From contig MFEY01000004.1 of NCBI GenBank assembly GCA_001780035.1, forward strand, positions 81,405-145,404: DNA of 64,000 nt, given 5' to 3'. Shown here piece by piece: positions 11,920 to 36,636 of the stretch. The position numbers and the translations under genes are program-made. Every line of letters starts with the position of its first letter. The stretch's first letter is position 1. A model generated the notes under the pieces. The model did no database searches and had not been told where the DNA came from. It saw only the letters and a program-made list of their open reading frames with translations. The DNA is from Candidatus Doudnabacteria bacterium RIFCSPHIGHO2_12_FULL_48_16. GTDB lineage: Bacteria; Patescibacteriota; Doudnabacteria; UBA920; O2-02-FULL-48-8.

Positions 11920-11949
11920 TATAGTATCAATCCAGTTCGCCCTCATCCC

Positions 11950-12213: not shown

Positions 12214-12222
12214 TCACTATAA

Positions 12223-14411: not shown

Positions 14412-15443
14412 CTATTTACTGACGACATGAAGATTGCCGTCGCCGGTATTGATAAAAAACAAACTGCTGCCAATCAACATTAGGTTTTTGGCAAAAATCT
14501 GCTGGTCGGATGAAAAAAAGTCATTCTGACGAAAGGTCAAAAGATCTTCCGTAAGAAAATCGTCCCCGCCGCCGTCTTTTTTGGGAATGGCAGCATAGAC
14601 CGTTTTGCCTTCCTTGTCGACCACTATCTTGTCCAGAGAAGTGTTCAGGTCCAGATCCGTCGCCTGTTTGCTGATCATATCAAATAAATAAACCCGCGGG
14701 TAAGCCGTAATCGCGCTTTGGGAAAATAAAAACCGGTTGGCTGAAATCCAGATTGCCTCCAGATTTTTGCCCGAATCAATTACCGTTAGAATTTCTCCTG
14801 TTTCCAAATTGACCGAATAAATCTTATTGACATTCCCGTCAACGATTGAACGGTAAAGCAAGGCGGTTTTGCCGTCCGGAGAAACTTTAATCTGTAAATC
14901 CGGCCAAAAGACGTCTTTAATTATAACAAAACCCGTGCCATCGCCATTGGCCATGGCCAGCTGCTGATGTTGATTGTCGGCTGATTGCCAGATATAAACG
15001 ATGCGCCGGCTATCCGGCATCCAATCGAGGCTTTTTATGTTGGCTGGCAGGGTAGTATAAACTTTTTTCTGGCTATTATAGTAGTCCTTGATTTCGCCGG
15101 TTGAACCCGAAGATATGGCAATAAAATCTTCGCCGGCCTGCGGCCATAAAATTTTTCGGATTGTGCCGGAAAGCAGCGGCAACGGATATTCGGTCAAACC
15201 TTCACCGTCGAGGTTGATCCGAAACAGCCGTCCTTCAGCATTAAAATACCAAATTCCTCCATTGTTTATCGCTGGAATTGGCGAAACCACCCGGTCGTTG
15301 CCGATTTTTTTTATTTGCGGCGCCGCGGCAATTGGTGGTTTGGTTTGATTTTTTACTTTCATGGCCCAAACCAAAAGCCCGCCGATAACGGCTAAAATCA
15401 ATGCTCCGATTGCCGCGATAATAACAAATTTGCGATTCATCAT
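14412..15443 (-). CDS. membrane-anchored TolB-like beta-propeller (PD40 repeat) protein
   Basis: TM helix (FVIIAAIGALILAVIGGLLVW). PD40-like SPDGKTALLY motif. The start was chosen at an internal Met to avoid overlap with the upstream gene. Confidence 0.4.
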   Translation of the reverse strand: MMNRKFVIIAAIGALILAVIGGLLVWAMKVKNQTKPPIAAAPQIKKIGNDRVVSPIPAINNGGIWYFNAEGRLFRINLDGEGLTEYPLPLLSGTIRKILWPQAGEDFIAISSGSTGEIKDYYNSQKKVYTTLPANIKSLDWMPDSRRIVYIWQSADNQHQQLAMANGDGTGFVIIKDVFWPDLQIKVSPDGKTALLYRSIVDGNVNKIYSVNLETGEILTVIDSGKNLEAIWISANRFLFSQSAITAYPRVYLFDMISKQATDLDLNTSLDKIVVDKEGKTVYAAIPKKDGGGDDFLTEDLLTFRQNDFFSSDQQIFAKNLMLIGSSLFFINTGDGNLHVVSK

Positions 15444-15454
15444 ATTGATTAAAT

Positions 15455-16828
15455 TTAATCGGTCGGCGGCGGATTCGGAAACGGCGCGCAATAACTGCCG
15501 GTCGGCGGCGTGGGAATATTGAATTCCACATGCACGTGCCCGGCGGTGGCGTTACGGGCAGGATTATGATATTCATCCAGCGTATTGGTCGCCGCGCCAT
15601 TGGGGAAATATCTTTGCGCGATGGCGAATAACCTGGCTATCCGGCCGTCTTGGTAGCCGGGCGGCAATGAATGAGTGTTTTGGTTCCAAGGCACGGTGGG
15701 ATTCCGCAAAGAAATATCCACGGCCTCGCCGCGACTATGGGCTGACGTTGTGCCGCTGGCCGTTTCTCCGTCCCCACGAAAGGCGCTGGTTATGGTGATT
15801 GAAAGCCCGGCCGCAGCAGCATCATTGGAAATTTGCTGAATCTTAACCAGCATACACTGTCTGACTCTGGGGTCGGACGTTCCCGGATCAACGCTGACTC
15901 CGCTCAATGCCACCAAATCAGATGGCTCCCAATCAAAACTGCCTGAAGCTCCGCCGCCGCCGCTCGCTCCCCCGCCAAAATTAGTGATGGCCAGCTTGGC
16001 GCAGATATCAACCGGAATGGCGCCGGTCCAACTGCCGACCTTGGAAACAACGCGGGCGGATAAGCCAGTTAAGCCCTTTTCGTTACACTTGCCAACCATG
16101 GCTGTAAATATAAACATCACTAGGGCGAAGAAGATTATTAGGCCCAGGATAATGAGCAGCGCGGGACCCCAAAATTCGACAGTCCCGGCAGCCACTCCAG
16201 CAGCTTCTGCGCCTTCGGCCGCTGTGGCCGCGCCGGCTGCCGCGCCGCCTTCGGCAGCGCCTGCAGCTTCCGCGCCCTCCATGCCGGCTTCTTCCGCTCC
16301 CATACTTTCCGCTTCAGCCGATTCAGCTTCTGCTTCCGGATTTTGGTCCTCGGATTGATTCTCTCCCTCTCCCTCTTCTTCATCTCCCTCTTCCTTGTCT
16401 TCGTCCTCGCCGCCTTCCTCATCCGCATTTTCTTTCTCCGGCTCTTCTTCCTCGTTTGATTCTTCCTGCTCTTCCGGCTCCGATTCTTCTTCAGATTCTT
16501 CTTCGGAAGGTTTTTTCTCAGGTTGGGGTTGTTCCTGCGGCCGCGGTTGTTCTTCCTGACTGGATTGCCGGCGGGTCTCGTCATCCAGGCGATCAGTAAT
16601 CTTAACCTTCCCCTCCGACCTGAGTCGAAGCTCCAGTATTTCTTTTTGTTGCAAATCTAAAAGAGTATCTTGACGAAGCTGTTCCTCGGCCTCTTGCAGG
16701 ATCCGCATCTCTTCTACTGACGGACCGGAAGCCTTCAATTTTTCCACAAACCAGTCATTGGCAGCAGCTAAGTCATCCTGTGGTTTGACCTCGTCCGTAG
16801 AATCTTCTTCCAGCGCATTATTGGCCAT
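15455..16828 (-). CDS. LAS-family zinc metallopeptidase (peptidase M15 / VanY-like peptidoglycan hydrolase). It has an N-terminal coiled coil, a poly-acidic tract and a TM helix.
   Basis: The C-terminal domain carries SAHSRGEAVDI (the H-x6-D zinc-binding motif) and HVHVE (the H-x-H motif). The upstream segment is E/D-rich (EEESEEESEPEEQEESNEEEEPEKENADEEGGEDEDKEEGDEEEGE) and is followed by the helix LLIILGLIIFFALVMFIF. Confidence 0.55.
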   Translation of the reverse strand: MANNALEEDSTDEVKPQDDLAAANDWFVEKLKASGPSVEEMRILQEAEEQLRQDTLLDLQQKEILELRLRSEGKVKITDRLDDETRRQSSQEEQPRPQEQPQPEKKPSEEESEEESEPEEQEESNEEEEPEKENADEEGGEDEDKEEGDEEEGEGENQSEDQNPEAEAESAEAESMGAEEAGMEGAEAAGAAEGGAAAGAATAAEGAEAAGVAAGTVEFWGPALLIILGLIIFFALVMFIFTAMVGKCNEKGLTGLSARVVSKVGSWTGAIPVDICAKLAITNFGGGASGGGGASGSFDWEPSDLVALSGVSVDPGTSDPRVRQCMLVKIQQISNDAAAAGLSITITSAFRGDGETASGTTSAHSRGEAVDISLRNPTVPWNQNTHSLPPGYQDGRIARLFAIAQRYFPNGAATNTLDEYHNPARNATAGHVHVEFNIPTPPTGSYCAPFPNPPPTD

Positions 16829-16831
16829 CTC

Positions 16832-18667
16832 CTATTCTCCTGTCACCGCTTGGGTTTGTTGCGCCTGCAGTTCTTTTTTCGCTTCCTCGATCTCGAGGGC
16901 CCGTTTGGGGTCAGTTGTAATTATCTGGTCTTCCATATAGGAAGCGATAATTTTGATCGCCACGTGCTTAATCCCGGCAAAAAATATTCCTTCCCCGACA
17001 TCGGATTCCAGCAGCAGATATTTTTCGCCTTCAGTTAAGAAGAAAGTTTTGGCAATCAGATCCACCGCAGCCGGCGATTGTTTCAACAGCAGCTGAATGG
17101 AGGAATTAGTGACAATTGGCTTGCCGTAAGGGCTTTGTAAAAAGTCGGTAACGTCCTGGGTGATGGTGGTCACGCCCAAATAATATTTGCGGGCGCGCTT
17201 CGCCATGCCGAATAAAAACTTAGCGGAATCATCATGCTGCATCATCCACCAGGCTTCATCTATGACCAAGATGCGTTTTTTGAGCGATGACCGCACGACG
17301 TTCCAGATGTAATTCAAAATGACGTAAATGGCAATTGGCCGGAGCGTATCTTCCAAATCCCGCACCGAAAATACGGCCAGCTGGTTATTTAGATTGATAT
17401 TGGTGGGCTGATTGAAGATGCCGCTGAATGTCCCTTGGGTATATTTGGTCAGCCGCTGCGCCAACGATTCGCCGCCGACCATGCCGGATAAAATTTCAAC
17501 CAGATCCTGCATAATCGGCGGTTCAATATTGTTGAAATTGGAGTTAGCCGTAATGTCTTTTTTGGCATAAGTTTCCCAAAGAGCACGATCCATAATCGCC
17601 TCTTCCGTAGGATCCAGTTTGCCCAACATTAAATTCATGAGCCCCAAAAGGCTGACGACCGCGGCCCGCAGGACATCTTCATTAGTCTCGCCTTCGATGC
17701 CGCGCGGCAAATCAAACGGATTAACCCGGGAATCCGAGTTGAGCGAGATATTGAGGAAGCTGCCGCCGACGGAATCGGACAAATGCTTATATTCGTTTTC
17801 CGGGTCGATGGCGATGACGTCCGCACCAAGCATTAAGGAGCGCAGAATTTCCAGCTTGACCGCGTAACTTTTACCACTGCCCGATTTGGCGAAAACAACG
17901 GAATTGGCGTTTTCCATCTGGAAGCGGTCAAACAAGATCAAACTGTTATTGTGCCGGTTGATTCCATAAAGAATCCCGTCGTTCGAGGTCAGTTCCGAAG
18001 AGACAAAGGGAAACGTCGTTGACAGCGGCTCGGTATTCATATTGGCGGCGATCGCCAGCTCGTCATTGCCGAGCGGTAAGGTGGAATTAAAACCCTGCTC
18101 CATCTGCAGCACGGCGGGCTTGGCGATGATTAATTTCGAGCCAAGCAGCGACTCGAGCGTGGAAGAAAGCTGGTCGAGTTCTTTGAGATCCCCGGCATAA
18201 ACCGTAAAGTAAATAGAGAAACGGAAATATCGTTCCGTGCCTTGCTGCAGCTTGTCCCGCAAAGATTCCACGTCCTGAAAGGCGGTTTGCATCATCGGAT
18301 CGCGGACGTTGCCTTTTTCCTGGCTGATCCGCATGCTGGCTTCGATGCGGCCAACCTGGCTTTTGAGCTTCTTCATAATCTCATCGGTCGACATCGGATA
18401 AATAAACTGGGCCATATCCATTTCCGCATCCATGTTGATGATCGGCGACAGCCAATCAACGGAAACGAACCGCGGGTAAGCCAACACGAAAAATGACCGG
18501 GCAAATTTGCCGGAAATCTCGACCGTATTCTGGCCGACCCGGAATGCCGCCGGAGCAATCAGGTCTTTGAGGGTATTAAGCCCCTCTTTATATTCCCGCT
18601 CCTTCTGCAGGATTTGCCGCTGCAAATCCCGGTTCGGATCGATCGATTGTGATTTAAATAGCGCCAT
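16832..18667 (-). CDS. type IV secretion ATPase, VirB4/TrbE/CagE family
   Basis: Walker A VVFAKSGSGKSYAV and Walker B RILVIDEAWWMM, with VirB4-type N- and C-terminal regions. Confidence 0.75.
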   Translation of the reverse strand: MALFKSQSIDPNRDLQRQILQKEREYKEGLNTLKDLIAPAAFRVGQNTVEISGKFARSFFVLAYPRFVSVDWLSPIINMDAEMDMAQFIYPMSTDEIMKKLKSQVGRIEASMRISQEKGNVRDPMMQTAFQDVESLRDKLQQGTERYFRFSIYFTVYAGDLKELDQLSSTLESLLGSKLIIAKPAVLQMEQGFNSTLPLGNDELAIAANMNTEPLSTTFPFVSSELTSNDGILYGINRHNNSLILFDRFQMENANSVVFAKSGSGKSYAVKLEILRSLMLGADVIAIDPENEYKHLSDSVGGSFLNISLNSDSRVNPFDLPRGIEGETNEDVLRAAVVSLLGLMNLMLGKLDPTEEAIMDRALWETYAKKDITANSNFNNIEPPIMQDLVEILSGMVGGESLAQRLTKYTQGTFSGIFNQPTNINLNNQLAVFSVRDLEDTLRPIAIYVILNYIWNVVRSSLKKRILVIDEAWWMMQHDDSAKFLFGMAKRARKYYLGVTTITQDVTDFLQSPYGKPIVTNSSIQLLLKQSPAAVDLIAKTFFLTEGEKYLLLESDVGEGIFFAGIKHVAIKIIASYMEDQIITTDPKRALEIEEAKKELQAQQTQAVTGE

Positions 18668-18711
18668 GGGTATAAATGTCTAATATCAAATTTCTAATGA
18701 CTAACAAAATG

Positions 18712-19017
18712 TTAAATGCTTAATTCTTTAATTTTATTAGCTTTAGATTTCTTTATAATAGCAACAAATATTAAAGTTAATTCGTTTGTTTCTTTCATAA
18801 GCTCTGTCGCTCTATCTTTTAATTCGGGAGTCGTGGTTATGAGCATTCTTAACCAGTGCTTCGTTTCTTTGGATTCTTTTTTACAAATCCCTAATTTATG
18901 CTCGAAATCTTTTCTAGTCTCTGCACAATCTGCCTCACAATAATTCGCTCCCACGCTAGTGCCAGATTTCACCAGCTGCCCAATTATTGGCAAAGTAACA
19001 ACATCTTTTGGGATCAT
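18712..19017 (-). CDS. four-helix-bundle protein (23S rRNA-IVS / Avd-like family). The N-terminus has no canonical start codon.
   Basis: It contains SVGANYCEA...RKDF...ICKKESKETKHWL. Family-typical sequence (DLEERTARFGEEIIKFAR) continues in frame upstream to a stop at 19111-19113. There is no ATG, GTG or TTG in between. Confidence 0.55.
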   Translation of the reverse strand: MIPKDVVTLPIIGQLVKSGTSVGANYCEADCAETRKDFEHKLGICKKESKETKHWLRMLITTTPELKDRATELMKETNELTLIFVAIIKKSKANKIKELSI

Positions 19018-19121
19018 CCTCGCGAATTTTATAATTTCTTCTCCAAATCTCGCCGTTCTTTCTTCTAAATCATAAACTTTATCGTTAGAAATTTTATTAG
19101 AAATTAGGCATTAGTAATCAG

Positions 19122-19865
19122 TCATTCTCCCGGACTCAAGTCGAGATCGCCGATGCTTTTGATCTTGATAGGTGAAGCCGTATTCAGGTTGTAACTGTTA
19201 TACATTAATTCCACCAGCTCTTCGGTGCTTAAAACCAGGGATTTAAGACTCATACCTCCCATGGCGCCGGCAACCTGGCTGACCCGCTTCATGAGTTCTT
19301 CCCGGCTTTTGTCAAAATCAGTTTGTTTTACGGAAATCTCGCGAGCCGGGCTCAACAGATTCATGATTTTCGACATGAATCCGGTTTTCCCGCCGCCGGC
19401 GATCAAAGGTATGATGACGTAAAAAGTTTTATTCATAATGCTGGCAAACTCAATCAGCTTGCCGACGTATTCGATATATTCTTGAGTTTGCAAACGCAAC
19501 AGCTCATTGGTTTGCTGCTGCATCACCGATCTCAACTTGTCCAGATAGCTATGGATATCAAGCTTTCTTGACTGCATTAAGATCTGGATTGGAAATTCCA
19601 GCGAATTTAAAAAATTCTGGTAGGTCGCAATCAGGGCATTTTGTTCCTCGCCGCTCTTTAAAGAAAAATTGACTGACGAGACCACAAGCACCGCCCGCAG
19701 CGAACCATCCTTGAGGACCACAACGCCTTCCTTGATCTCTTTGATATCCAAATACGCCTGGGTCGATGCCGAAGGCTTGTTCCCCGTCATAGAACTGGAT
19801 TGCATCTCTTGCTGGTTCATATTAAGTGTTGTGAGCTGCGTGACCGACCAACTCTTCCTCTTCAT
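19122..19865 (-). CDS. hypothetical T4SS-associated protein (VirB4 N-terminal-domain-like)
   Basis: The motif YLDIKEIKEGVVVLKDGSLRAVLVVSSVNFSLKS...FLNSLEFPIQI resembles the VirB4/TraC N-terminal region. Confidence 0.3.
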   Translation of the reverse strand: MKRKSWSVTQLTTLNMNQQEMQSSSMTGNKPSASTQAYLDIKEIKEGVVVLKDGSLRAVLVVSSVNFSLKSGEEQNALIATYQNFLNSLEFPIQILMQSRKLDIHSYLDKLRSVMQQQTNELLRLQTQEYIEYVGKLIEFASIMNKTFYVIIPLIAGGGKTGFMSKIMNLLSPAREISVKQTDFDKSREELMKRVSQVAGAMGGMSLKSLVLSTEELVELMYNSYNLNTASPIKIKSIGDLDLSPGE

Positions 19866-20265
19866 GGACTTTTTGGTCGAGCAAATAGGCTAATTTTTTC
19901 AAGCGGCTCTCCGGAGCTTCGATAGTGGTTCGTAACTGCGGCTGTTCCTGTTGCTTGGCAACTTTTTTGATTGTGATGATCGGTTCGACCCGATGAAACA
20001 CCCGGACATGGGGTTTGGATAAAAAATTTATAAAAGCTCCGATAAAACCAACCATGGGCCGGCCGTTAAATTTAGCGAAAGCCAAGGCCAGGCCCAATAC
20101 GGCAAACGGGAAGGAAAAAAAGAAAAAGAATACTGAAATTTTTAAAACTGAATAAAATAAGAGGATGATCCCGCCGGTCAGCAATAAAATCAAGAATTGC
20201 TTGAGGGTCAACGGACCGATCAGTTTATCCTCGACATCGGTAAATTGAGGGATGGCATACTGCAT
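19822..20265 (-). CDS. small two-TM membrane protein, VirB3/PrgI-like candidate
   Basis: Two hydrophobic helices (FLILLLTGGIILLFYSVL and AVLGLALAFA) followed by a charged tail. It lies upstream of the VirB4-like gene. Confidence 0.35.
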   Translation of the reverse strand: MQYAIPQFTDVEDKLIGPLTLKQFLILLLTGGIILLFYSVLKISVFFFFFSFPFAVLGLALAFAKFNGRPMVGFIGAFINFLSKPHVRVFHRVEPIITIKKVAKQQEQPQLRTTIEAPESRLKKLAYLLDQKVHEEEELVGHAAHNT

Positions 20266-20292
20266 GAAATATTGAATATGAATTATGAACTA

Positions 20293-20655
20293 TTAAAGAT
20301 TTTTAATAGTTCCCATTAACATTGCGCCAATTTTTTTCGAAAGCGAACTGGCGTTTTCGTACTCAGGTTTAGATATTAATCCTTCAGCAAACGAAAACTC
20401 GATAAGGTATTCGGATTCTTTTAGTGACCCGAACGATATTAGTAAAAAATTTTTGTGACTTTTGTCGCTCATGCGGGCATAACCCTCAATGTAATTTAAA
20501 ACCACAGAAAGACTCGCTCGTCGTAATTGAGAAATTATCCCATATATCTCATTTTTCGGAAATTTACGGGTTAAGGCGTAAATAAAATGGGCAAAATTGT
20601 CCATTTTTTGCCGTAATTGCTGATGGAAAATCATATTTATTTTAGTTTCAAGCAT
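20293..20655 (-). CDS. four-helix-bundle protein (23S rRNA-IVS / Avd-like family)
   Basis: Roughly 120 aa with a four-helix-bundle pattern. Family assignment is by similarity to the other copies, and confidence is moderate. Confidence 0.55.
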   Translation of the reverse strand: MLETKINMIFHQQLRQKMDNFAHFIYALTRKFPKNEIYGIISQLRRASLSVVLNYIEGYARMSDKSHKNFLLISFGSLKESEYLIEFSFAEGLISKPEYENASSLSKKIGAMLMGTIKNL

Positions 20656-20722
20656 TTTGATTTATATTTCAAATTTCATCCTTTATACTTCAAACATTAT
20701 ACCATAAAGGGCAAGACTTATC

Positions 20723-20749
20723 AAAAAAGCCCGGACGGGCTTATTTTAT
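20723..20749 (-). terminator. Rho-independent terminator (bidirectional)
   Basis: GCCCG-ga-CGGGC flanked by an A6 run and a T run. It sits immediately after the PIN gene stop. Confidence 0.6.
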
Positions 20750-21181
20750 GAAGTTTGAGAGCCAATTTACCCACCCCTCGCCTTCATCCTCCCAAATGCT
20801 CCAGAATTCCGCCGGCCGGACAATCCGCACCCCATGATACTTTTCCAATTTCAACAGATGCAAATCCGACGTGATCAAATAGTCTGCGCCGCTTGCTACG
20901 GCTGACTCTAAAATTTTATCGTCCTCAGGATCTTCCACAATCCGCAATTTCTCGCCCGTTGCCACGGGTTGGACGACTTCGAAAAAATATTCCAGCTTTT
21001 TAAGATAACCTTCGTCCGAAATTTTTCTCCGGGCCAAAAATTTATTTTCATTCAAGGTTGCCCGATTGGCGTAAGCCATAATCTGGTTGGCGATCACCAA
21101 ATCCAAGATTCTGTTTGCATACCGGTAATAATCTTCCGAAGCATCAATCAGCACATTGGTATCAATCACGACTTTGAGCAT
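20741..21181 (-). CDS. PIN-domain nuclease (VapC-like)
   Basis: VIDTNVLID at the N-terminus. Acidic residues in DPEDDKILESA and YLITSD match the PIN catalytic arrangement. Confidence 0.7.
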   Translation of the reverse strand: MLKVVIDTNVLIDASEDYYRYANRILDLVIANQIMAYANRATLNENKFLARRKISDEGYLKKLEYFFEVVQPVATGEKLRIVEDPEDDKILESAVASGADYLITSDLHLLKLEKYHGVRIVRPAEFWSIWEDEGEGWVNWLSNFIK

Positions 21182-21312
21182 GAGTTAAAAATGACTAATT
21201 ACTAATTTCTAATGACAAATAAAATTTTAAATTAAAAATGTCTAATGGTTTAATCATTGAGACATTATATCATTTTATTAGAAATTTGTAATTGGAAATT
21301 TGACATTCCGAC

Positions 21313-22614
21313 TTATAGCCGTTCTATTTCCTTCCGCAAATCCGCCATGGCCTCAAACTCGGCTTGGGTCATTTCTCCGGCGGCACCAGAACCGACCACC
21401 TTTGAATTGCCGTGAGCCATGTATGATTTGAATAAAGGGCTTTGTTCAAAAGCCGTGACCGCATAGTAAGGCAAAACATTGTTGGCTCGGGCCAAATTAG
21501 AAATTAGAGATTTTAAATTGGAAATTTGCGACTGCAAACTTCCTTGGCGCAAAAAACTCAAGTCAAGTTTTTTTAGATCATCGATAGTTTGAATCACTGA
21601 CATACGCGGACTGGACGCGGAATGCGGTGGACGTGTCTCGTCTTTGCGAGCGGCCATTTGACTAAGCACTGCTGTCGATGGCCGCGAAGCAATCTCTGAT
21701 TTGTGCCCGGGCAATTCGACGGTCTTGACTTCCCGTTGTATTTCTTGCGGAGTCATGGATATGGCCGGTTGAGGCTTGGGAGTAAATTTAACCGTCCCGG
21801 CTTGCATTTTGGCCTTAAATTCCTCCAAGGGAGCGCCGTGCGGAATTGGTGGCTTGCTTATGATCGGAAAAGCAATCTTCGGGCTAGTGGGCACGGGAGG
21901 GGTTGGGCGCAGAATCGACGACTGGGGGGTTCTTTCCACCACCGGGATATTCTTGGGATATTTAAGGTGATTATACACAGTTAGAATATTGGTGAGGAGT
22001 TGCCGGTCAGCCATGCTTAAGGTTTTCACATTGGGACTTGAATAAAAATACTGAGTCATCTCATAAGTCCCGGTTCTCAGTTTGGCCGGATCGGAATAGC
22101 TAATATAATCTTTCAGCCAATTGGCTATCGAGCCGATGACCTTGTCGCCCGATTTAAGGATCAAGGCTTGCGGGCCCAAAATTTCCTGATTACGGATTAA
22201 AGCGTCAATGAACATCTGACGTTCTCCGGCATCAGGGCCAATGCCCAATTCAAACATTCGCAGATACCGCTCCAAGCAATAGACGATGTCAATTTGCTTT
22301 TTGATTGACGGAATCACATTGCGCACCAAAATCCGCTCCTTGATTTTTTTGGTCTGATTTTGCAAAGACTGCCATTCCAGGGTTGATAAAACCACAAGCA
22401 GCCGGGCCGAAATATTTTGGTTCCGGATTGCTTTGCTGTTCTCTAAGAGTTTGGCCAACAAATCATAAAATTCCCTGGCCAAACCTGGCTCATAATTATA
22501 CATCGGATCCGCGGCAATTTTTTCGATCTGAATTATAACTTGCTGATTATTCAACTCATCCGGGGTCAGATGGTCGAGATCCTCTACTTGTATATTTTCT
22601 ATTTGAATGGTCAT
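21313..22614 (-). CDS. hypothetical protein (T4SS locus)
   Basis: A 433-aa ORF. Its stop overlaps the upstream gene start by 4 nt (ATGA), suggesting translational coupling. Confidence 0.35.
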   Translation of the reverse strand: MTIQIENIQVEDLDHLTPDELNNQQVIIQIEKIAADPMYNYEPGLAREFYDLLAKLLENSKAIRNQNISARLLVVLSTLEWQSLQNQTKKIKERILVRNVIPSIKKQIDIVYCLERYLRMFELGIGPDAGERQMFIDALIRNQEILGPQALILKSGDKVIGSIANWLKDYISYSDPAKLRTGTYEMTQYFYSSPNVKTLSMADRQLLTNILTVYNHLKYPKNIPVVERTPQSSILRPTPPVPTSPKIAFPIISKPPIPHGAPLEEFKAKMQAGTVKFTPKPQPAISMTPQEIQREVKTVELPGHKSEIASRPSTAVLSQMAARKDETRPPHSASSPRMSVIQTIDDLKKLDLSFLRQGSLQSQISNLKSLISNLARANNVLPYYAVTAFEQSPLFKSYMAHGNSKVVGSGAAGEMTQAEFEAMADLRKEIERL

Positions 22615-25600
22615 GGTCTGATTGGGTTACCTTCCCTGTCGATAGGGTTACCTCGGGCGTCAGTAAGAAAAGGTGCGGCTGGCGGCGCGGGCGGCTGAGG
22701 AACTTGAGCGCGCTGTTGTTGGCCGCCTCCTCCACCATCTACATTCTGTGCGCCTTTGGCTTGAGCGGCTTTCTTCATTACAAAAGAATAATTAAAATCA
22801 ACCGCTCTGTCACCATCCACGAAAACTTCTCTTTTGGCCGGGTCAGACTCGTAATTCAGATAAAGTTTCATGGTGGATAGCCCGCCTCTTTGGTTCTGGG
22901 GCAATCCCAATTTTTCCGCATACAACACTTGGGCCTGATCTCTCTGGTGAGTCCACAAATTCTGAACTTTTCTCAATTCATCGGAATTGTTAATGATCAG
23001 CCGGCCGTCATGCGTAACTTTCGTGGCCAGTTGGGTATCCTTAACCCGTGGTTGAATGTTCTGCACGCGATCCAGAGTTACCGGATCATTCATCAAATTA
23101 TTCTGCTGATCATAAAAGGCCTTCGAGGCGTCTGTGATATCGGTGGCACCCCAGTAAGTATTTCTGATTTCTTTACCATCGGTTCGAACATCAAACATCA
23201 GCTTGCCGTTAGCATCCCGCTTCTGCTCAGGCTCGGTAAACATCAGCTCGCCGGTATTCGCATTCCGCTTCTGCTGCCCGGTCGCCTCATCCATTATTGG
23301 TTTGACCGTCGTTGGATCCATGATCGGAGTTTTGCTCGTAATGATTTTTCCATCTGCATCCAACTCACCCATAATCGGCGCCAGACCGTGGGGAGCCATA
23401 GTGACCAAATCATTGACCTTTTTCTTGCTAAACTCACCTTTGGCATAATCGGCCTGATGAGTATTATCAAGTGTCTTGATCTTATGGCCAAAGCCGTTGT
23501 CTCTTTCCGGCCCGACTTCCTTCATGCCCTCTTCCCACATGCTGGTATCTGGATTGAAGAAAGTGTGTCCCAAGTATTCCGGATGATTGGTATTTTTGCC
23601 CATATCCTCCATATCTTCTCCGATAAACCGCATGGCCTGCTCGCCTTTTCCCAAATAAGTCATTAATAACCGGTGAACGGTGTCCGGGCTATTAATGGCC
23701 ACTGACTGGGTGCCGTCGGGGTGCGTGATTTTCTCTCCATATTTTTCAGTAAAATGCTTCATTCTCATTAAATCATCAGTAAAGCCGTTGGCCGCGACTG
23801 CCTTCATTATTGCCAACCGGGTCGTTTCCCCTTCATGGCCGCCGATACCTTCGGCTTCGACCGCCAGCTGCATCAACTGCTCTTTCTTCATATCGGTCAA
23901 AAACTTCAGCTTTTCATTTTCCGCTCGTCGTTCGACCAATTGCGCATGCGGTAGGGTCGTGCCGGTCCATAAGCGTTCGGCGATTTGTTGGCCATAAGCG
24001 GTGGCGAGCTCTGTTTGATGGTGAGCCAGTTCTTCGCCTCTTTTCGAAAAACCCTTATACGTGCCGACTGGATTAAGCGCGGCATAAGCAAATCGGGCCA
24101 GTTTGCTCGGCTTCTTGCCGCCTTCCGTATGCAGCAATTTGCCCGTGGCTTCGTTATATTTTCGGCCGGCAAAACGGCCCATCCCGTGGCCAATCCCCTT
24201 TAGGGCTGCTGTAGCCGTTCCTTGCACCCCATGCACAATCATCTCCCCGCCCACCATGCCGGCTTCCTTGGCCACCAACAATGACGCGGCCAGAAATGCG
24301 CATAAAATCCAAAATTTAAACGAGGTGTTCTCCGCTCCGGTAATCGCAAATCGCGGGTCGTTGGCGACCAGGATGGTCAACCGGATCATAAACATGGCCA
24401 CCGGCGCCCAGATTAAATATTTAACAAAATGGCTCCACCACTCTTCCGAATATTTTTCCGTAGCCGGCAAAATCCGGGCCACATAAGCCACCGGCGAAAA
24501 AATGATCAGGACATAGAGCCCGACCAGCCGGATAATAAACATCGCGGCCAAAGCCAGATAAACCACCAGCCCCACGATCGCGTAAGCGATCTTGCCAAGA
24601 CCCAGGGCCAAACCCTCCTGCCAGCTGACATTGCCGCTGAATAACTCCTTAAAATCCAGCACGCTGAAAATCGCGCCCATGACCCCGTCGAGCCCATTGC
24701 CGCGGAAAATCAAAGCCAACAAATTGACCGCCTTCATGATCTCGACCGCGATAACCTGGCTAAAGTTAACCAAAATTGCCATGATGACCAGGTGGCCGAG
24801 CAAGTGGCGATAATCATAACTTTCGATATGCAAAATCGCAGCCAGAGCAATCACAATCAAAATGATAATAAAGAACATGTTGCAGATATCGCGAACGATT
24901 GCCCAACCGATATTGACCGCGGCAGGCATGGTCGAGATATCCAGGGCCGCTCCGGATGCATACGAGAACACTTCCGCCGCCAAGGCCGTCAAAATCGAAA
25001 GAGCGGAGGCCACGACGGACAAAACCATATTTAAGATCCAGCCAATGAAATCCCCACCGGCTGAAGCGCCCACGATCTTACCAACGTTCGCTTTCTGTTT
25101 GGTTGCCCATTGATCTTGAGTAAATGTAGTCCCTAAGACCAATTTAGTTTGAAAATTAAGAGCCAAGGTGCTTCGGGCGAGCTTGCCGTCTTTATTCCAA
25201 AATCCATTGGTGTCTACTTGGACAGTGCCGTCGACCACCTCACAAATTGTCGTGGGACGTTGGGCGTTAATCGGTCCGGTTAACCCTTGTCCCAACGCGG
25301 CTTTGAGATCCCCACCGGTTACTATGCTGACCAATCTGGACAATATATCGCAATTGGCCTTGCTGGCCGGGTTATTGGCAGCGTCAAAATCAGTTTTTGT
25401 AACTTTTACTGCCGGCGTCTTGGCGGACGGCGTCCAGGTTCCGCCCGCTGCAATGCAACCCTTTTGCCAACGATCAGGACCCGTACCGACCGGAGCCACA
25501 GGGGATGTTGCACCAGTGCAGGTCCCGTCGTCCGAAACCTGGGCAAACGCCAAATTCGCCAATGCAAAATTAGCGAGCAGGACAAGTGCTAGCAGTTGGA

Positions 25601-25631
25601 TTATTCGGTTATGTTTCGGGTTCGAGGACAT
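22611..25631 (-). CDS. VirB6/TrbL-like polytopic membrane protein with a large C-terminal hydrophilic domain
   Basis: Signal peptide, a block of at least six TM helices (about residues 200-480), then a hydrophilic tail of about 500 aa ending in a G- and P-rich segment. It sits in a VirB4 neighbourhood. Confidence 0.45.
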   Translation of the reverse strand: MSSNPKHNRIIQLLALVLLANFALANLAFAQVSDDGTCTGATSPVAPVGTGPDRWQKGCIAAGGTWTPSAKTPAVKVTKTDFDAANNPASKANCDILSRLVSIVTGGDLKAALGQGLTGPINAQRPTTICEVVDGTVQVDTNGFWNKDGKLARSTLALNFQTKLVLGTTFTQDQWATKQKANVGKIVGASAGGDFIGWILNMVLSVVASALSILTALAAEVFSYASGAALDISTMPAAVNIGWAIVRDICNMFFIIILIVIALAAILHIESYDYRHLLGHLVIMAILVNFSQVIAVEIMKAVNLLALIFRGNGLDGVMGAIFSVLDFKELFSGNVSWQEGLALGLGKIAYAIVGLVVYLALAAMFIIRLVGLYVLIIFSPVAYVARILPATEKYSEEWWSHFVKYLIWAPVAMFMIRLTILVANDPRFAITGAENTSFKFWILCAFLAASLLVAKEAGMVGGEMIVHGVQGTATAALKGIGHGMGRFAGRKYNEATGKLLHTEGGKKPSKLARFAYAALNPVGTYKGFSKRGEELAHHQTELATAYGQQIAERLWTGTTLPHAQLVERRAENEKLKFLTDMKKEQLMQLAVEAEGIGGHEGETTRLAIMKAVAANGFTDDLMRMKHFTEKYGEKITHPDGTQSVAINSPDTVHRLLMTYLGKGEQAMRFIGEDMEDMGKNTNHPEYLGHTFFNPDTSMWEEGMKEVGPERDNGFGHKIKTLDNTHQADYAKGEFSKKKVNDLVTMAPHGLAPIMGELDADGKIITSKTPIMDPTTVKPIMDEATGQQKRNANTGELMFTEPEQKRDANGKLMFDVRTDGKEIRNTYWGATDITDASKAFYDQQNNLMNDPVTLDRVQNIQPRVKDTQLATKVTHDGRLIINNSDELRKVQNLWTHQRDQAQVLYAEKLGLPQNQRGGLSTMKLYLNYESDPAKREVFVDGDRAVDFNYSFVMKKAAQAKGAQNVDGGGGGQQQRAQVPQPPAPPAAPFLTDARGNPIDREGNPIRP

Positions 25632-25708
25632 GGGGGTTTAAAATTTCAAATGTCAAATTACAAATGTCAAACAAAATACTTAGTTTTGAAATTTGTTATT
25701 TGTCATTT

Positions 25709-27820
25709 CTAACATGGCGTATTAGTGAGGTAACACGCGTCGGCCGGATCACCCGGGTCAATCGGGGCGGAATAATGGACTCCCGGATCACCGGATGGCG
25801 GCATCGGCAGCCAGGCCGGGATATTGGTTTCGCTGACGCTGCCCAAGATATCAACTCCAGAATTATCGGGATAGGAGAACACGTCGGCAGAGAAGCCGTT
25901 GCATTGACTGGTATGGTAAGTGACCGTCAGCCCGGCGCCTTCTCCCCGCAGGGCCCAGGCGACGCGTTTGACGATTTCAAATCCCCCGCAATAGCTGTTC
26001 AGGGCAATGCCTTTGGATTCGACGTATCGTTTGACATTGGCGACCAGCTCCGTGCGATCGGCGGACTTGCAGGCAATGTTGTCCGGCTCATCGACGCAAG
26101 TCGGACCGTCTTCGTCGCCTTCATCGCCCGGATCAATAATGTCCGGCGGAACCACCTCCCCGGCCGCCTGGACATTGGGGTTGTCGCACCGGCCAATGGC
26201 TGCTTTGGTGTCCTTCAAATATTGAAGCATATCCTGGTTGCTCTGAATCAGAGCACCCAAGCCGCCGCCGCCGTTGCCGCGCAGGCGGGAGAGATCCATG
26301 TCCTGATCCTTCTGGATCGATTGGCTCATTTTCGACAGGAAATGCTGATAGCGGCTGATCGCAATTTCCATATTGTCGAAATAATTGCTCCGGTAATTTT
26401 GAATATTGTTAAGCAGGTTATCGATCGCCGAATCCGCCAGACCGGCGCGGCGGGCCCAGATATCAGCATCAGACTTGTTTACAAAATTGTCGCCGTCCGG
26501 CTTGATATGATCTTTGTGCGTCAAAATAAAGTCGTTAAATTCGGCCAGCGCGGCTACGGCCTGATCCAGGGATTGGCAGATCGGCGTAAAATAAGGCGAG
26601 GTTTTGACTTCGCTGGATTTTTTGCAATTCGGCGCCGTGCCGCCGTGGTAACAAACGTCGGAGATAGTATTGAGCTGATTGTCGCCGTCGACGTCCTGGC
26701 CCTCCGGAATATTGTCACCATCCAGATCAAGATCCCGAATCAGCGGCGCCACGCCGTTATCGGCTTGATAGCCGCTGCCGGATTCGTTAAAGGTCCCGCC
26801 GGATTTGGTGAGGTTTAATTTATTAAAAATGAAACTGCCCAGCAGCGACCCGATGGTGCTGTAGAGATTGTCATGGAGGCCAAAGTTATCCTGGAAGACG
26901 GTCTGAATCGCATTCGTGGCAAAATTATGGATGAACGCGGATGGATTCTGAATGGCGGACTGAGCAATCCCGGTGGAATCAACTTTCCACTCCCCGCCGG
27001 CGAGGATGCAATCTGACAGATTGGTAATCGGCTGCTTGGGATAATAAAAAGTCTCAGCTTCAGGATCGGACGGATCCGACGAATAGATTTCCGGATAGGA
27101 GAACTGGACGTTGGTGCAAATGCGCGGCACAATCCCGGTCGGGGTCGAGCGGTCGTTTTTCAACCCCTGGCTGTTGGCAGTTTCCGACCCGGCCGCTTTC
27201 TCCGAATCGGCGACCATGCGGCCAAACTCCCCATACAACTCTTGCTGGGTAAAATCCGGCGGACTGGAAAAATATGCCCGCGCCGCGGCAAAATAATACT
27301 TATCTTCCACGAACGCCCCATTTGGATTTAAAATCCGGTTGGAGTTGATGCCGCCCCGCTCGTAATAAAATTTATCGATTTTTTGCCGCAGCGCAGCCAT
27401 CAACGGCTTGCTGTTGCCCGAAGAGTCCGTAACCGTGGCGCGGTTATTGATGTCGCGGGCCAGCAATCCATAAATGGCGCGCAGATCGGGATCCGAAACA
27501 TTGTCGTATATATATTTATTCAAATAATATCCGGACAAGACTTTGTCGTAAGCCAGATAATCCTTAATCCGATATTTATCAATCAGTTTGTCGACAAATC
27601 TAGTCAGATATTTGTTAGCATAGCTGATGGCGATTCGCTGCGCGGCCGCCAAGCCGATGTCTTTGAAAACATCATACCAGTTGGCCACCTCGGTATTGAA
27701 TGTAAAGTCGCCGACGCCGAATAGCGCTTCAGCTGGCTTGGGTTTGATCACGAAAAACTGCCCGCCAACCAGTGAAATTAGGACCAAGCCTATGGCAATT
27801 TTTCGAAAAATCATTTTCAT
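25709..27820 (-). CDS. large secreted protein with a Cys-rich C-terminus
   Basis: Signal peptide (IAIGLVLISLVGG), acidic DxDGD-type motifs and 14 Cys residues in the last 150 aa. Confidence 0.4.
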   Translation of the reverse strand: MKMIFRKIAIGLVLISLVGGQFFVIKPKPAEALFGVGDFTFNTEVANWYDVFKDIGLAAAQRIAISYANKYLTRFVDKLIDKYRIKDYLAYDKVLSGYYLNKYIYDNVSDPDLRAIYGLLARDINNRATVTDSSGNSKPLMAALRQKIDKFYYERGGINSNRILNPNGAFVEDKYYFAAARAYFSSPPDFTQQELYGEFGRMVADSEKAAGSETANSQGLKNDRSTPTGIVPRICTNVQFSYPEIYSSDPSDPEAETFYYPKQPITNLSDCILAGGEWKVDSTGIAQSAIQNPSAFIHNFATNAIQTVFQDNFGLHDNLYSTIGSLLGSFIFNKLNLTKSGGTFNESGSGYQADNGVAPLIRDLDLDGDNIPEGQDVDGDNQLNTISDVCYHGGTAPNCKKSSEVKTSPYFTPICQSLDQAVAALAEFNDFILTHKDHIKPDGDNFVNKSDADIWARRAGLADSAIDNLLNNIQNYRSNYFDNMEIAISRYQHFLSKMSQSIQKDQDMDLSRLRGNGGGGLGALIQSNQDMLQYLKDTKAAIGRCDNPNVQAAGEVVPPDIIDPGDEGDEDGPTCVDEPDNIACKSADRTELVANVKRYVESKGIALNSYCGGFEIVKRVAWALRGEGAGLTVTYHTSQCNGFSADVFSYPDNSGVDILGSVSETNIPAWLPMPPSGDPGVHYSAPIDPGDPADACYLTNTPC

Positions 27821-27923
27821 CCCGTTAGAAATAATGATTAGTTAAATAATTAATGTTTTTGATAATCAACCCGTTGGAGTATAATTTGTCTGATGTTTTG
27901 CTATGTAAAATTTCTAACGGGAT

Positions 27924-28853
27924 TCATTGCGGGAATTCCTTGGCCAAAAATTGTTTTTCGAAATCCAGGCGTTGTTGGACCGCCAAAAATTGCTGGACTT
28001 TGTCATACCAAGCATCGCTGCCAGCGGCGGATAAATCAGTCGGTGCCGGTAAAATTTCCGACAACAGGCCAAACATGGCGATGTTATATTTATGGAACAT
28101 CAAAAATCTTTTCGGGACCGGAATGGTTTTTAATTCCATCGCGAGCAAACCGGCTTTGATCTTGATATCGGTGACCTCGGCATCGGATCCGGATTTCAAA
28201 ATCTGCGTGATGCCGGCGAGATTCTGCTGCGGAAAATATTGGCTGACGGCGGATTGCATCCGCGAGCTGTATTCGTTGTAAGCGCTGGCGGTTTCCAAGT
28301 AAACTATTTGCAGCTTGTCATCTTCCACCAGGGGCAGTGTGACCTTGGCAATATCGTTCGAATCAGCCACCATCTTCTGGATGTCTTCGGCAAAGACCAA
28401 GCTCTCCCCGAGGATGTTGTCCGGGTCGGCCTGTTGCTCAAACGTCACGCGGCCATGCTTACTCGGATCAAATCCCGCCGTGACCAGTTGCCCGTCATTG
28501 AGCGTGTCTTTGGCCGTGTAAGGATTGAGCGGCTCGGTGTGATAAAAATATTCCTGTGCATTGGTCAGCTTGTCCTGATCCGGATCGGCGTCCATCTGAC
28601 AAGTCGACTGATCGCATACGGAGCTGCCAAAGTATTCCTGCAGCCACCAGCCGGGCAGGCCAAGATCAACCGGTTTGGTATCGGCCAGGGTATTGCCGGT
28701 TTGATTATGCGGCCGGAAAAATGCTGAAATTCCGGCGACGGAGAGAGCCAAAATTAAAACAGCCAAAACAGCTTTCCGTTTGTATTTTTGGAAGCGGCCG
28801 GTGGCTGCCAGAAACGTGCCGTAATTGTGATTTTTCTTTTTGTTTCGGTGCAT
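27924..28853 (-). CDS. membrane-anchored protein with thrombospondin-type-3-like acidic repeats
   Basis: N-terminal TM helix (AVLAVLILALSVAGISAFF). DADPDQDKLTNAQE motif. Confidence 0.4.
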   Translation of the reverse strand: MHRNKKKNHNYGTFLAATGRFQKYKRKAVLAVLILALSVAGISAFFRPHNQTGNTLADTKPVDLGLPGWWLQEYFGSSVCDQSTCQMDADPDQDKLTNAQEYFYHTEPLNPYTAKDTLNDGQLVTAGFDPSKHGRVTFEQQADPDNILGESLVFAEDIQKMVADSNDIAKVTLPLVEDDKLQIVYLETASAYNEYSSRMQSAVSQYFPQQNLAGITQILKSGSDAEVTDIKIKAGLLAMELKTIPVPKRFLMFHKYNIAMFGLLSEILPAPTDLSAAGSDAWYDKVQQFLAVQQRLDFEKQFLAKEFPQ

Positions 28854-28950: not shown

Positions 28951-28979
28951 ATTATAGCACAAAAAGCCGAACTTGTCTA
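28951..28979 (-). promoter_or_regulatory. sigma-70 promoter TAGACA-17-TGcTATAAT
   Basis: The reverse complement of 28951-28979 gives the -35, a 17-nt spacer and an extended -10. A nearly identical module lies downstream of the paralogous 4HB gene at 40309-40337. Confidence 0.5.
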
Positions 28980-29029
28980 GCCCAAAAAGAACGAACAGCG
29001 TTGAGCGTGCAGCGTAGAGAAAGGGCTAC

Positions 29030-29383
29030 TTAATTTTTGAGCTTGAAGATCATTGAATAAAGCATTTTTTGTACTTCTTCTAACAAGGCTTCTGCCCTAA
29101 AGTAATCAATATTAGAATACTGTTCTTTGGAAATAACAACCTGAGTTTCCAGTTCCGCAGCTGAACCCATAGCAATGCCCAAAAACTGAATAAACTCCCT
29201 CTGGTGATTCCTTCGATATCCTTCCGCGATGTTCGACGGGATTGCAACTGCTGCTCTTTGCATCTGAGAAACTAATCCATACATTTCAGTCTTAGGCATT
29301 TGTTTAGTGGCTGAATAGATCTCGTTTACGAGCTTAATTGCTTTTTGCCAAACTATAAGTTCTTTGAATGAATTTACTTTCAT
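29030..29383 (-). CDS. four-helix-bundle protein (23S rRNA-IVS / Avd-like family)
   Basis: MKVNSFKELIVWQKAIKLVNEIY...QMQRAAVAIPSNIAEGYRRNHQREFIQFLGIAMGSAAELETQ is a textbook family signature. Confidence 0.75.
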   Translation of the reverse strand: MKVNSFKELIVWQKAIKLVNEIYSATKQMPKTEMYGLVSQMQRAAVAIPSNIAEGYRRNHQREFIQFLGIAMGSAAELETQVVISKEQYSNIDYFRAEALLEEVQKMLYSMIFKLKN

Positions 29384-29393
29384 AAATTTTAAA

Positions 29394-30314
29394 TTAATTA
29401 TTTTCTGAACGCTGTCCGCTGTACGCTACACGCTTATAGAGTTCCACCCACTGTTCGATCTTCAAATCCTGGGGGCGAGTGGTCGGCTCAATCCCCGCTT
29501 GTTTGAGTAATTGCCATGTCTGCTCTTTGTTCATTTTCAAGCCGTTGGCCAGGGTGTTGTGAATCTGCTTTCGTTTGCCGGCAAAAGCAATCTTAACGAT
29601 GCGGAAAAAAGTTTTTTTGTCTTTGATCTCCGGATATTTGTCGCGCGGCGTGATTTTTAAAACCACGGAGTCAACTTCCGGCTGGGGCCAGAAACTTTCC
29701 TTGGGCACGCTCAGGACAATTTCAGCGTCGGCGTAAATCTGCACCGAAATCCCCAGAATGGAAAGTTCGCCCGCGCTAGCTGTCACCCGCTCCCCCACTT
29801 CCTTCTGGACCATGAGGACCATCGAGGTTGGTTTGTTTGCCATTTCCAGAAAAGTTTGTAACAGTTTGCTGGTGAGGTAATATGGAATGTTCGCCACGAC
29901 TTTATAATCGCCGGTAATGTGCTCAGAAAGATTGAATTTTAAAATATCTAAATTAAAAACTTTGTTTTTCTGCAACCCCGAACCTTGTCCCGGACTCCGA
30001 TCCGGGATTGATTCGGGGTCTTTTCGACGAGATCCTGAATTAAATTCAGGATTGCGCCGCAGCAACTCCGCCAACTTTGAATCCTTCTCGACCGCGATAA
30101 CTCGCCCCGCTCGTTTCACCAGTTCAAAAGTCAACACGCCCAACCCCGGGCCGACTTCCAAAACCACATCGCCCGGCTGCAGCTCGGCCGCGGCCACAAT
30201 CCCCTGCAAGGCAGCTTGGTCAACCAAAAAATTCTGACCGAGATAATCGCGAGGTTTCAAGCCGTGATGTTTTAAAAAAGTTTTAAGATTTTCTACGTCT
30301 ATGAGATTATTCAT
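29394..30314 (-). CDS. rsmA: 16S rRNA (adenine1518/1519-N6)-dimethyltransferase RsmA/KsgA, with a roughly 25-aa in-frame insertion
   Basis: SAM-binding motif LEVGPGLGVLT, and NIPYY. The insertion EFNSGSRRKDPESIPDRSPGQGSGLQ is encoded by nested palindromes. Confidence 0.85.
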   Translation of the reverse strand: MNNLIDVENLKTFLKHHGLKPRDYLGQNFLVDQAALQGIVAAAELQPGDVVLEVGPGLGVLTFELVKRAGRVIAVEKDSKLAELLRRNPEFNSGSRRKDPESIPDRSPGQGSGLQKNKVFNLDILKFNLSEHITGDYKVVANIPYYLTSKLLQTFLEMANKPTSMVLMVQKEVGERVTASAGELSILGISVQIYADAEIVLSVPKESFWPQPEVDSVVLKITPRDKYPEIKDKKTFFRIVKIAFAGKRKQIHNTLANGLKMNKEQTWQLLKQAGIEPTTRPQDLKIEQWVELYKRVAYSGQRSENN

Positions 30315-36634: not shown

Positions 36635-36636
36635 TT

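Follow-up and report, generated by a model that had tools for sequence, protein, structure and literature searches.

Intervening-sequence-like cassettes and an orphan PIN gene at the minimal type IV secretion-like locus of a Doudnabacteria genome

The four-helix-bundle protein family PF05635 was first found within the intervening sequences (IVSs) of 23S rRNA. The IVS of Coxiella burnetii is 428 nt long, has a 28-bp terminal stem that is cut by RNase III, and carries tandem heptamers (GACAGAT) before the start codon of a decaying S23p open reading frame (ORF) (PMC4990558). The Patescibacteria possess a class of type IV secretion systems (T4SSs) that resemble those of the mating-pair-formation type FATA (MPF-FATA), lack a relaxase and lie near ksgA and recG, TrsD being reported as their commonest component (Quinonero-Coronel et al., 2025; PMC12102498), and in the cultured Saccharibacterium Southlakia epibionticum the T4SS cluster SEML1_0006-0019 is essential (Wang et al., 2023; PMC10633639). 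Here we describe a 64,000-nt stretch of DNA from Candidatus Doudnabacteria bacterium RIFCSPHIGHO2_12_FULL_48_16, a metagenome-assembled genome from Rifle groundwater (assembly GCA_001780035.1, contig MFEY01000004.1, positions 81,405 to 145,404), which we call the window, and in it a block of genes on the minus strand (14412-28853) that is a minimal, monoderm-type T4SS-like locus of this candidate phyla radiation (CPR) bacterium, without a relaxase or type IV coupling protein (T4CP), of a class already published (PMC12102498, PMC10633639, PMC12857230). The T4SS core recognized in an earlier note on this DNA is correct and already known; only the pattern of cassettes that interrupt it may have some novelty. 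Taken as a whole, we consider the locus likely to be a vertically inherited Patescibacteria-type T4SS of Doudnabacteria, to which foreign IVS-type cassettes and a resident orphan PIN nuclease gene have been added.

Relatives of the locus were sought by scanning one genome per species, which yielded 140 VirB4 relatives from which 80 loci were kept, their VirB4 identity to that of the window ranging from 87% in Doudnabacteria to 57% in Moraniibacteriota. BLAST searches with the window proteins gave one conserved order over the 80 loci, KsgA-g309-g703-VirB6-g433-like-PrgI-TrsD-VirB4-(hydrolase)-propeller-RecG, and the conservation of this order from KsgA to RecG indicates that the locus is chromosomal and vertically inherited and not a mobile element. 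Four-helix-bundle (PF05635) ORFs, 30 copies in all, were present in 21 of the 80 loci and occupied at least six slots (before VirB6, after VirB4, and between g433 and PIN, PIN and PrgI, PrgI and TrsD, and TrsD and VirB4), every one of the 30 being co-oriented with the operon. The two such genes listed in the earlier note are indeed members of PF05635, but the locus holds three, the third at 29030-29383, and a degraded fourth lies elsewhere in the window. The cassettes of the locus, and the repeats in the window related to the arms of cassette 2, are as follows.

20252-20705, minus strand: four-helix-bundle cassette 1, ORF 20293-20655, with weak inverted arms at 20661-20705 and 20252-20296 (score 25)
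18671-19126, minus strand: four-helix-bundle cassette 2, frame 18712-19110, with inverted arms at 19078-19126 and 18671-18717
28997-29427, minus strand: four-helix-bundle cassette 3, ORF 29030-29383, with arms at 29391-29427 (AGCGTAC heptamers) and 28997-29036
21186-21307, unstranded: ORF-less inverted-repeat hairpin of the cassette 2 arm family in the g433|PIN gap (z -3.85), containing TGATATAAT
30317-30440, unstranded: ORF-less inverted-repeat hairpin of the cassette 2 arm family in the UvrD|KsgA gap (z -4.36)
25638-25684, unstranded: solo AT-rich arm repeat of the cassette 2 arm family in the g703|VirB6 gap

The four-helix-bundle genes, which are not T4SS subunits, make up foreign cassettes some 450 nt long in which inverted arms of 7-nt repeats enclose a PF05635 ORF; we draw this from their composition, sporadic slots, inverted arms, heptamers and folding, from the alternative states of their junctions and from the arm family that they share. 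The three copies at the locus match PF05635 with E-values of 5.8e-35, 8.1e-26 and 5.2e-11, and their nearest solved structure is XCC0516 (2gsc_A; 2.6e-18). They are AT-rich, with a G+C content at third codon positions (GC3) of 0.29-0.38 compared with 0.51-0.63 in all apparatus and housekeeping genes tested. When the 160 nt upstream of each ORF were aligned to the reverse complement of the 160 nt downstream, the mean pairing score of the flanks was 32.5 in cassettes as against about 19 in PrgI and PIN controls, with z of at least 3.7 in 27 of 33 cassettes, and the inverted arms were found to abut the ORF. Arms pair far better with their own partners than with the arms of other cassettes (33.2 versus 18.9; p = 1e-16), so that it is complementarity that is conserved, not sequence. 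The heptameric design is apparent from an autocorrelation at lag 7 of 0.61 in upstream and 0.67 in downstream arms, compared with about 0.43 at other lags and in controls, and an arm of cassette 3 reads AGCGTAC AGCGGAC AGCGTTC. When the two best window cassettes are folded to minimum energy, the flanks pair and the ORF forms the loop. The gaps between RecG and p169 did not provide a clean folding control, being themselves strongly structured (mean z -2.09), and that of the window carries a tRNA-Arg gene.

Comparison of equivalent junctions shows the cassettes in different states. Cassette 2 is inserted at the TrsD|VirB4 junction, otherwise 3-12 nt long (L002, L003, L015 and L038), which bears a heptamer-rich insert of about 90 nt in L005 and L006; the window and L028 carry a full cassette there. 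The frame of cassette 2 fits the family profile over its full length, yet ATG, GTG and TTG are missing before residue 32 (Met at 19017); the ORF of 18712-19017 reported previously does exist, as what remains of the full-length frame 18712-19110 without its start. The gap between g433 and PIN contains a full cassette in L001, the same arms with only about the last 20 codons of the ORF in L010, and an ORF-less hairpin in the window and in L003. Cassette 1 interrupts the 5' leader of the PrgI-VirB4 unit and cassette 3 lies between KsgA and the first unit of the block, where its left arm (29391-29427) overlaps the last codons of KsgA (end 29394), so that the insertion closely adjoins the 3' end of KsgA or lies within it. 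No target-site duplications were seen by eye at three junctions. These genes are foreign in composition, bounded by inverted repeats, sporadic and variable in their junctions, and the earlier view of them as unusual insertions within a single apparatus operon is not supported. The fourth window copy (40379-40807, minus strand) is N-terminally truncated (profile positions 36-123, E 1e-20, GC3 0.38), has no detectable inverted arms and sits between two unfamiliar ORFs near large surface-protein genes.

Other small nuclease genes were encountered at the same junctions. ORFs of the GxxExxY PD-(D/E)XK type, of about 125-145 aa, lie in T4SS junctions of six relatives (L001 9577-9999, L008 8862-9290, L020 7630-8040, L021 6890-7285 and 8191-8634, L026 8762-9142, and L027 8000-8416); these inserts of about 380-480 nt share the junctions of the four-helix-bundle genes and have inverted arms of short repeats, with scores of 30-46. 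Relatives also have small GIY-YIG ORFs, both in the g433|PIN or g433|PrgI gap and at other places (L002 7859-8143, L012 7967-8269, L081 4336-4719), their inverted arms being weak or lacking in L002 and moderate in L012. At two loci that are not T4SS loci, the slot between an NYN gene and a PIN gene holds a four-helix-bundle cassette in one and a PDDEXK_3 cassette in the other, both with inverted arms, which argues that the cassette design is general and not bound to T4SSs.

The closest described counterparts of these cassettes are the IVSs of 23S rRNA in Coxiella burnetii (PMC4990558) and Leptospira, with which they share a length of 400-500 nt, a terminal inverted-repeat stem with an S23p/PF05635 ORF in its loop, tandem heptamers just before the start codon, and decay of the ORF including loss of translation signals. 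They differ in being located between the protein-coding genes of mRNA operons and not in helix 25 or 45 (no rRNA was found in the 64-kb window, and all cassette copies lie between protein-coding genes), in their many independent copies with differing arm sequences, and in the alternative GxxExxY nuclease cargo of the same slots. By analogy, the arms of a cassette would pair in the transcript, RNase III would cut the stem and the cassette would leave the polycistronic RNA, and cassettes would decay in place to ORF-less hairpins. Excision by RNase III belongs to the Coxiella IVS, and for the cassettes described here such cutting, like their mobility, is predicted from sequence. We tentatively propose, as an idea that could well prove wrong, that the rRNA IVS is the best-known landing site of a wider mobile class, defined by inverted heptamer arms around one small ORF for an S23p four-helix bundle or a GxxExxY PD-(D/E)XK nuclease, which in Patescibacteria resides, in the orientation of the host genes, in tight junctions of conserved protein-coding operons with a concentration at T4SS loci, is probably excised from the mRNA by RNase III and decays to ORF-less hairpins scattered between genes. 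Our literature searches, whose coverage was incomplete and which are no proof of novelty, returned no account of comparable cassettes anywhere but in rRNA genes, and the 2025 survey of Patescibacteria T4SSs (PMC12102498) speaks in its text of neither PIN nor four-helix-bundle genes. Membership of a diversity-generating retroelement as an Avd protein was considered and rejected, there being no reverse transcriptase domain among the window ORFs and no long direct repeat pair; the bAvd-like matches of the four-helix-bundle proteins were below cut-off (35.8 and 26.2 bits versus 40).

All 12 ORFs listed in the earlier note for 14412-28853 were recovered on the minus strand at the same positions, with translations that agree with their description, and its T4SS-like reading stood throughout, every apparatus assignment having survived testing, those of TrsD and of the wall hydrolase as probable ones with weaker matches. 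With the four-helix-bundle cassettes set aside, the features of the block, in order of transcription, are given below.

28951-28979, minus strand: promoter-like P1, TAGACA-17-TATAAT with TG, a consensus match only, ahead of the first T4SS unit
27924-28853, minus strand: g309, opening unit 1, a protein with an N-terminal anchor and a single DADPDQDKLTNAQE acidic motif
25709-27820, minus strand: g703, secreted or anchored protein of 703 aa with 12 Cys
22611-25631, minus strand: extended VirB6/TrbL-like polytopic membrane protein of 1006 aa, from structure comparison
21313-22614, minus strand: g433, cytoplasmic two-module protein, the first 4 nt of the gene overlapping the VirB6 stop
20741-21181, minus strand: orphan PIN_3 nuclease gene, from the PIN_3 profile, predicted to form its own transcription unit
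20727-20742, minus strand: intrinsic-terminator-like, G+C-rich hairpin, AAGCCCGTCCGGGCTT then a T run, directly 3' of PIN
20696-20724, minus strand: promoter-like P2, TTGATA-17-TATAAT, a consensus match ahead of PrgI
19822-20265, minus strand: PrgI family protein (VirB3 analogue) with two transmembrane (TM) helices, PF12666
19122-19865, minus strand: TrsD-like protein of 247 aa, from VirB4 N-terminal profile matches
16832-18667, minus strand: VirB4-family ATPase with Walker A KSGSGKS and Walker B LVIDEAW, and profile matches
15455-16828, minus strand: bitopic LAS/M15-like protein, its acidic N-terminus in the cytoplasm and its peptidase domain outside the cell, with a single TM helix between them
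14412-15491, minus strand: membrane-anchored PD40/TolB-like beta-propeller, from profile matches
14382-14399, minus strand: terminator-like hairpin that closes the block and overlaps the 3' end of the convergent RecG

The ATPase matches the TraG P-loop (3.5e-24) and CagE_TrbE_VirB (4.4e-6) families of Pfam and exceeds the cut-off of the NCBIfam model NF045971 for VirB4-like ATPases of the CD1110 family (356.7 bits versus 325), covering positions 183-733 only of the 752 in that model. The 247-aa protein matches positions 9-100 of the same model (7e-5) and positions 97-233 of the mycoplasma VirB4 model NF045975 (1.8e-8), with a weak score against the TrsD model itself (26 bits versus a cut-off of 200). 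Since it thus matches the part of the model that is missing from the ATPase gene, it corresponds to the N-terminal part of VirB4, as in pGO1, in agreement with the VirB4-N-terminal-like sequence previously noted in it; the two products together would span the length of full-length VirB4 models. Alignment of orthologues places the true start of TrsD probably at 19820 and that of the propeller gene probably at about 15443. PrgI scores 35.5 bits with PF12666 (cut-off 27). VirB6 begins with a signal peptide and an N-terminal domain, continues with about six TM helices and ends in a domain of about 530 aa, and its VirB6/TrbL identity is borne out by structure comparison. The large hydrophilic tail, once thought unusual, belongs to the known extended VirB6 type (Rickettsiales VirB6 paralogues and others), which combines a membrane core of at least five helices with large hydrophilic extra domains (PMC12857230), and its length varies, orthologues having 667-1150 aa; unlike described examples, structure comparison gave no recognizable relative for the C-terminal domain of about 530 aa, which is poorly conserved even within Doudnabacteria. 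The LAS/M15-like protein gives weak M15 matches only (0.045 here, and in 4 of 11 orthologues, best 3.9e-4), and the motifs SAHxRGEAxD and GGHVHVE (LAS H-x6-D and H-x-H) are kept among orthologues; as a wall hydrolase adjoining virB4 it may have, on weak support, a VirB1/PrgK-type role. PD40 repeats were detected in 5 of 12 propeller orthologues, along with a weak TolB match. In such a machine a VirB4 hexamer, docked via PrgI and VirB6, would power a channel through a single membrane for which the LAS/M15-like hydrolase would open the cell wall, and, by analogy with the essential system of Saccharibacteria, the T4SS would serve host interaction and not conjugation.

The Patescibacteria-type T4SS derives from the monoderm MPF-FATA type. 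The locus resembles the Gram-positive systems of pGO1 (TrsD/TrsE), pCF10 (PrgH-I-J-K-L) and the Clostridioides difficile CD1110 family in a VirB4 above the CD1110-family cut-off and, as in pGO1, in having the putative TrsD and the ATPase as separate genes, and differs from them in its chromosomal, vertically inherited location and in having here no relaxase, T4CP, oriT context or PrgB-type adhesin. The order VirB6...VirB3-VirB4-hydrolase resembles that of prgH-I-J-K. No VirB8-like protein was recognized at the locus. With the published Patescibacteria systems (PMC12102498, PMC10633639) it has in common VirB4, PrgI/VirB3, VirB6 and, putatively, TrsD and a wall hydrolase downstream of virB4, as well as a chromosomal site adjoining ksgA and recG with no relaxase or coupling protein nearby. 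It departs from them in that no VirB2-like pilin array is present in the window, in the lineage-specific g309, g703 and g433 and the anchored beta-propeller, and in its interruption by IVS-like cassettes and an orphan PIN unit. The absence of VirD4, relaxase and VirB9/10/11 originally noted holds among the ORFs of at least 150 aa across the 64-kb window; no integrase domain was found in the window, and no small two-TM pilin-like ORF was found, again as had been reported.

Intergenic distances inside the conserved groups of genes range from -17 to +14 nt, as against gaps of 57-1072 nt and 66-213 nt on the two sides of PIN across loci. An extended -10 element (TGTGGTATAAT or TGTGTTATAAT) before PrgI is kept in seven relatives, in several of which the terminator-like hairpin after PIN is found as well, and the 131-nt gap upstream of PIN contains the promoter-like TGATATAAT and a hairpin; P1 before g309 is the third strong promoter-like site. 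The block would then consist of three units, [g309-g703-VirB6-g433], [PIN] and [PrgI-TrsD-VirB4-hydrolase-propeller], and the single apparatus operon assumed earlier would be broken by the terminator-like and promoter-like sites after PIN.

The PIN gene matches PF13470 (PIN_3) at 1.5e-17 and TIGR00305 with 50 bits (cut-off 29), and its residues D7, E45, D84/E86/D87 and D106 are invariant across ten orthologues; the nuclease is probably active. The orthologues share an additional acidic, Trp-rich C-terminal tail, FW..EDEGEGW.KWL.NFI, beyond the PIN core. In its PIN_3 fold signature, its full set of acidic catalytic residues and its score above the TIGR00305 cut-off it is like the VapC-type toxins (TIGR00305/PF13470); it is unlike them in having no antitoxin, in being a single orphan in two housekeeping-like contexts and in its C-terminal tail. 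A toxin-antitoxin reading was rejected because no partner gene was found. PADLOC searches with PIN, the four-helix-bundle proteins and the unfamiliar proteins turned up no convincing defence system, PIN matching the N-terminus only of a candidate family (3.6e-5). PIN is present in the g433|PrgI gap of 12 of the 80 loci, all of the closest subclade, and the simplest reading is that it is a conserved resident orphan nuclease gene in an inter-operon gap of one Doudnabacteria subclade. The first proposal, of an insertion within the apparatus operon, is not supported: the gene is native in composition, comes with its own promoter-like and terminator-like sites, lies between two T4SS units and has orthologues outside T4SS loci. 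In other Patescibacteria metagenome-assembled genomes an arrangement RmuC-NYN-(cassette)-PIN_3-AddA-like UvrD/PDDEXK_1 helicase is kept (L081 5946-11842, L083 5466-11578), which suggests a nucleic-acid-processing gene group that includes the PIN orthologue.

The three readings that compete with the one favoured here concern the four-helix-bundle genes, the PIN gene and the block itself. If the four-helix-bundle proteins were genuine accessory parts of the T4SS, such as chaperones or adaptors, selected for encoding within the operon, one could readily account for 29 copies in 591 kb upstream of virB4 compared with one in 555 kb downstream (binomial 8e-8, uncorrected for phylogeny or shared ancestry), for the uniform orientation of all 30 copies, and for the presence of three of the four window copies at the T4SS locus. 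The genes are nevertheless missing from 59 of the 80 loci and change slot between genomes, their composition is foreign and their inverted arms are specific to each cassette; they decay, by loss of the start codon here, to the remnant in L010 and to ORF-less hairpins elsewhere; and both GxxExxY nuclease cassettes of the same arm design in the same slots and the same design beside PIN away from any T4SS locus speak for cassettes, so that we think it improbable that these proteins are accessory parts.

A place for PIN in the T4SS, either as an RNase effector or toxin that is secreted into the host cell or as the remnant of a toxin-antitoxin pair that stabilizes the locus, we regard as unlikely. 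In its favour are its constant position in 12 related loci, with identities of 50-73%, and the conservation of its catalytic residues and its tail, but no finding speaks directly for PIN as a T4SS substrate; a 2026 preprint on a patescibacterium feeding on host RNA, in which tubular structures were suggested as possible T4SS pili, is a lead only. Its native composition (GC3 0.54, like its neighbours), its own promoter-like and terminator-like sites, the lack of any signal peptide or TM helix, and the lack of an antitoxin or immunity ORF in the 131-nt upstream gap, which is filled by a hairpin, or of a partner gene in the contexts of orthologues all point the other way, as does the gene's distribution: it is not at the T4SS locus in most Doudnabacteria nor in any more distant one of the 80 loci, and orthologues of about 50% identity in other genomes are found away from any T4SS, following RmuC and flanked by NYN and AddA-like genes. 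That the block might be part of a conjugative or integrative element, with relaxase and coupling protein outside the window, could be argued from the VirB4, whose family (NF045971) is typified by the ATPases of conjugative transposons, from the tRNA genes nearby (11314-12297), and from the T4CP homologues reported far from virB4 in many Patescibacteria (PMC12102498). We give this almost no credence, and the reading of the block as an integrative conjugative element was rejected on synteny and flanking genes: both flanks are housekeeping (RecG, KsgA, UvrD, aminoacyl-tRNA synthetases and tmRNA), the KsgA...RecG neighbourhood recurs throughout a class and beyond, no integrase, relaxase or T4CP was found in 64 kb, the apparatus genes are native in composition, and the published survey counted 15 relaxase genes close to virB4 as against 2,474 virB4 genes (PMC12102498).

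Several points count against our reading of a vertically inherited T4SS with foreign cassettes and a resident PIN gene. The accumulation of four-helix-bundle genes upstream of virB4 is not explained by a purely selfish model of random insertion; possible reasons for it are greater tolerance in long co-directional operons, recombination via conserved flanks, or a regulatory effect on secretion genes. The folding of whole cassettes gives modest z values (-2.08 for cassette 2 and -1.66 for cassette 3), the stems of cassette 1 (score 25) and cassette 3 are weak, and the AT-rich arms, in which promoter-like hexamers occur, may be regulatory. The constancy of the PIN slot in 12 genomes is also compatible with a functional link to the T4SS, and genes for a T4CP or a relaxase may lie in other parts of this genome. 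The promoters and terminators, and cutting by RNase III, have all been deduced from nucleotide sequence.

Three conserved partners of the apparatus, g309, g703 and g433, gave no recognizable family or fold in profile and structure searches. For g309, conserved as far as the Moraniibacteriota loci and with a weak match to the Amuc_1099 family (0.006), the earlier description as an anchored, acidic-repeat protein was right about the anchor and the acidic character, but one acidic Ca-binding-type motif is present instead of repeats. AlphaFold modelled the N-terminal half of g703 poorly (mean pLDDT 61), and Foldseek comparison with the PDB returned generic helix bundles only (best E 0.68). A library of 1.84 billion proteins yielded 389 relatives of g433, among which no Pfam domain was found in 40 members and for which there was no PDB relative; the two modules of this family are also found separately. 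In the more distant, Doudnabacteria-like loci L029-L056 two successive g433-like or unfamiliar ORFs (about 300-400 and 250-330 aa) replace g433 and PIN in the interval between VirB6 and PrgI.

The genes flanking the block are RecG (12372-14411, convergent) on one side and KsgA (29394-30314) and a UvrD/PcrA helicase (30424-32445) on the other, and the remaining window ORFs encode an ABC/MacB exporter, a sigma factor, an M23-LysM peptidase, large surface proteins, RecO, IleRS, ArgRS and MetAP. Two very large ORFs (34484-39759 and 43403-45172, minus strand; 716 and 1040 aa) with GBS_Bsp-like repeats, together with a DUF11 protein, are probably surface proteins of the episymbiont. An IleRS-like ORF of 1124 aa (45911-49285, minus strand) holds a complete His_Phos_1 domain (residues 494-652, 6e-34), which splits its class I catalytic domain into two parts, and an ORF of 1346 aa (59793-63833, minus strand) matches nothing in Pfam at E <= 0.001.

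These results change little in the picture of the secretion system, adding one more well-resolved example of a published and probably essential Patescibacteria machine. The map of its components is cleaner, with TrsD and the ATPase spanning VirB4, VirB6 recognized by structure, three predicted transcription units and three conserved partners, and g309, g703 and g433, being conserved and of no recognized fold, are the obvious candidates for the part that contacts the host. In the annotation and comparison of CPR operons, four-helix-bundle, GxxExxY and GIY-YIG genes, which behave here like foreign cassettes, should not be counted as components of the systems in which they lie. If the concentration of cassettes at T4SS loci is real, they either home to conserved sequences or reshape the expression of secretion genes, and the series of full, decayed and ORF-less forms at identical junctions is a rare comparative handle on the origin and mobility of IVSs.

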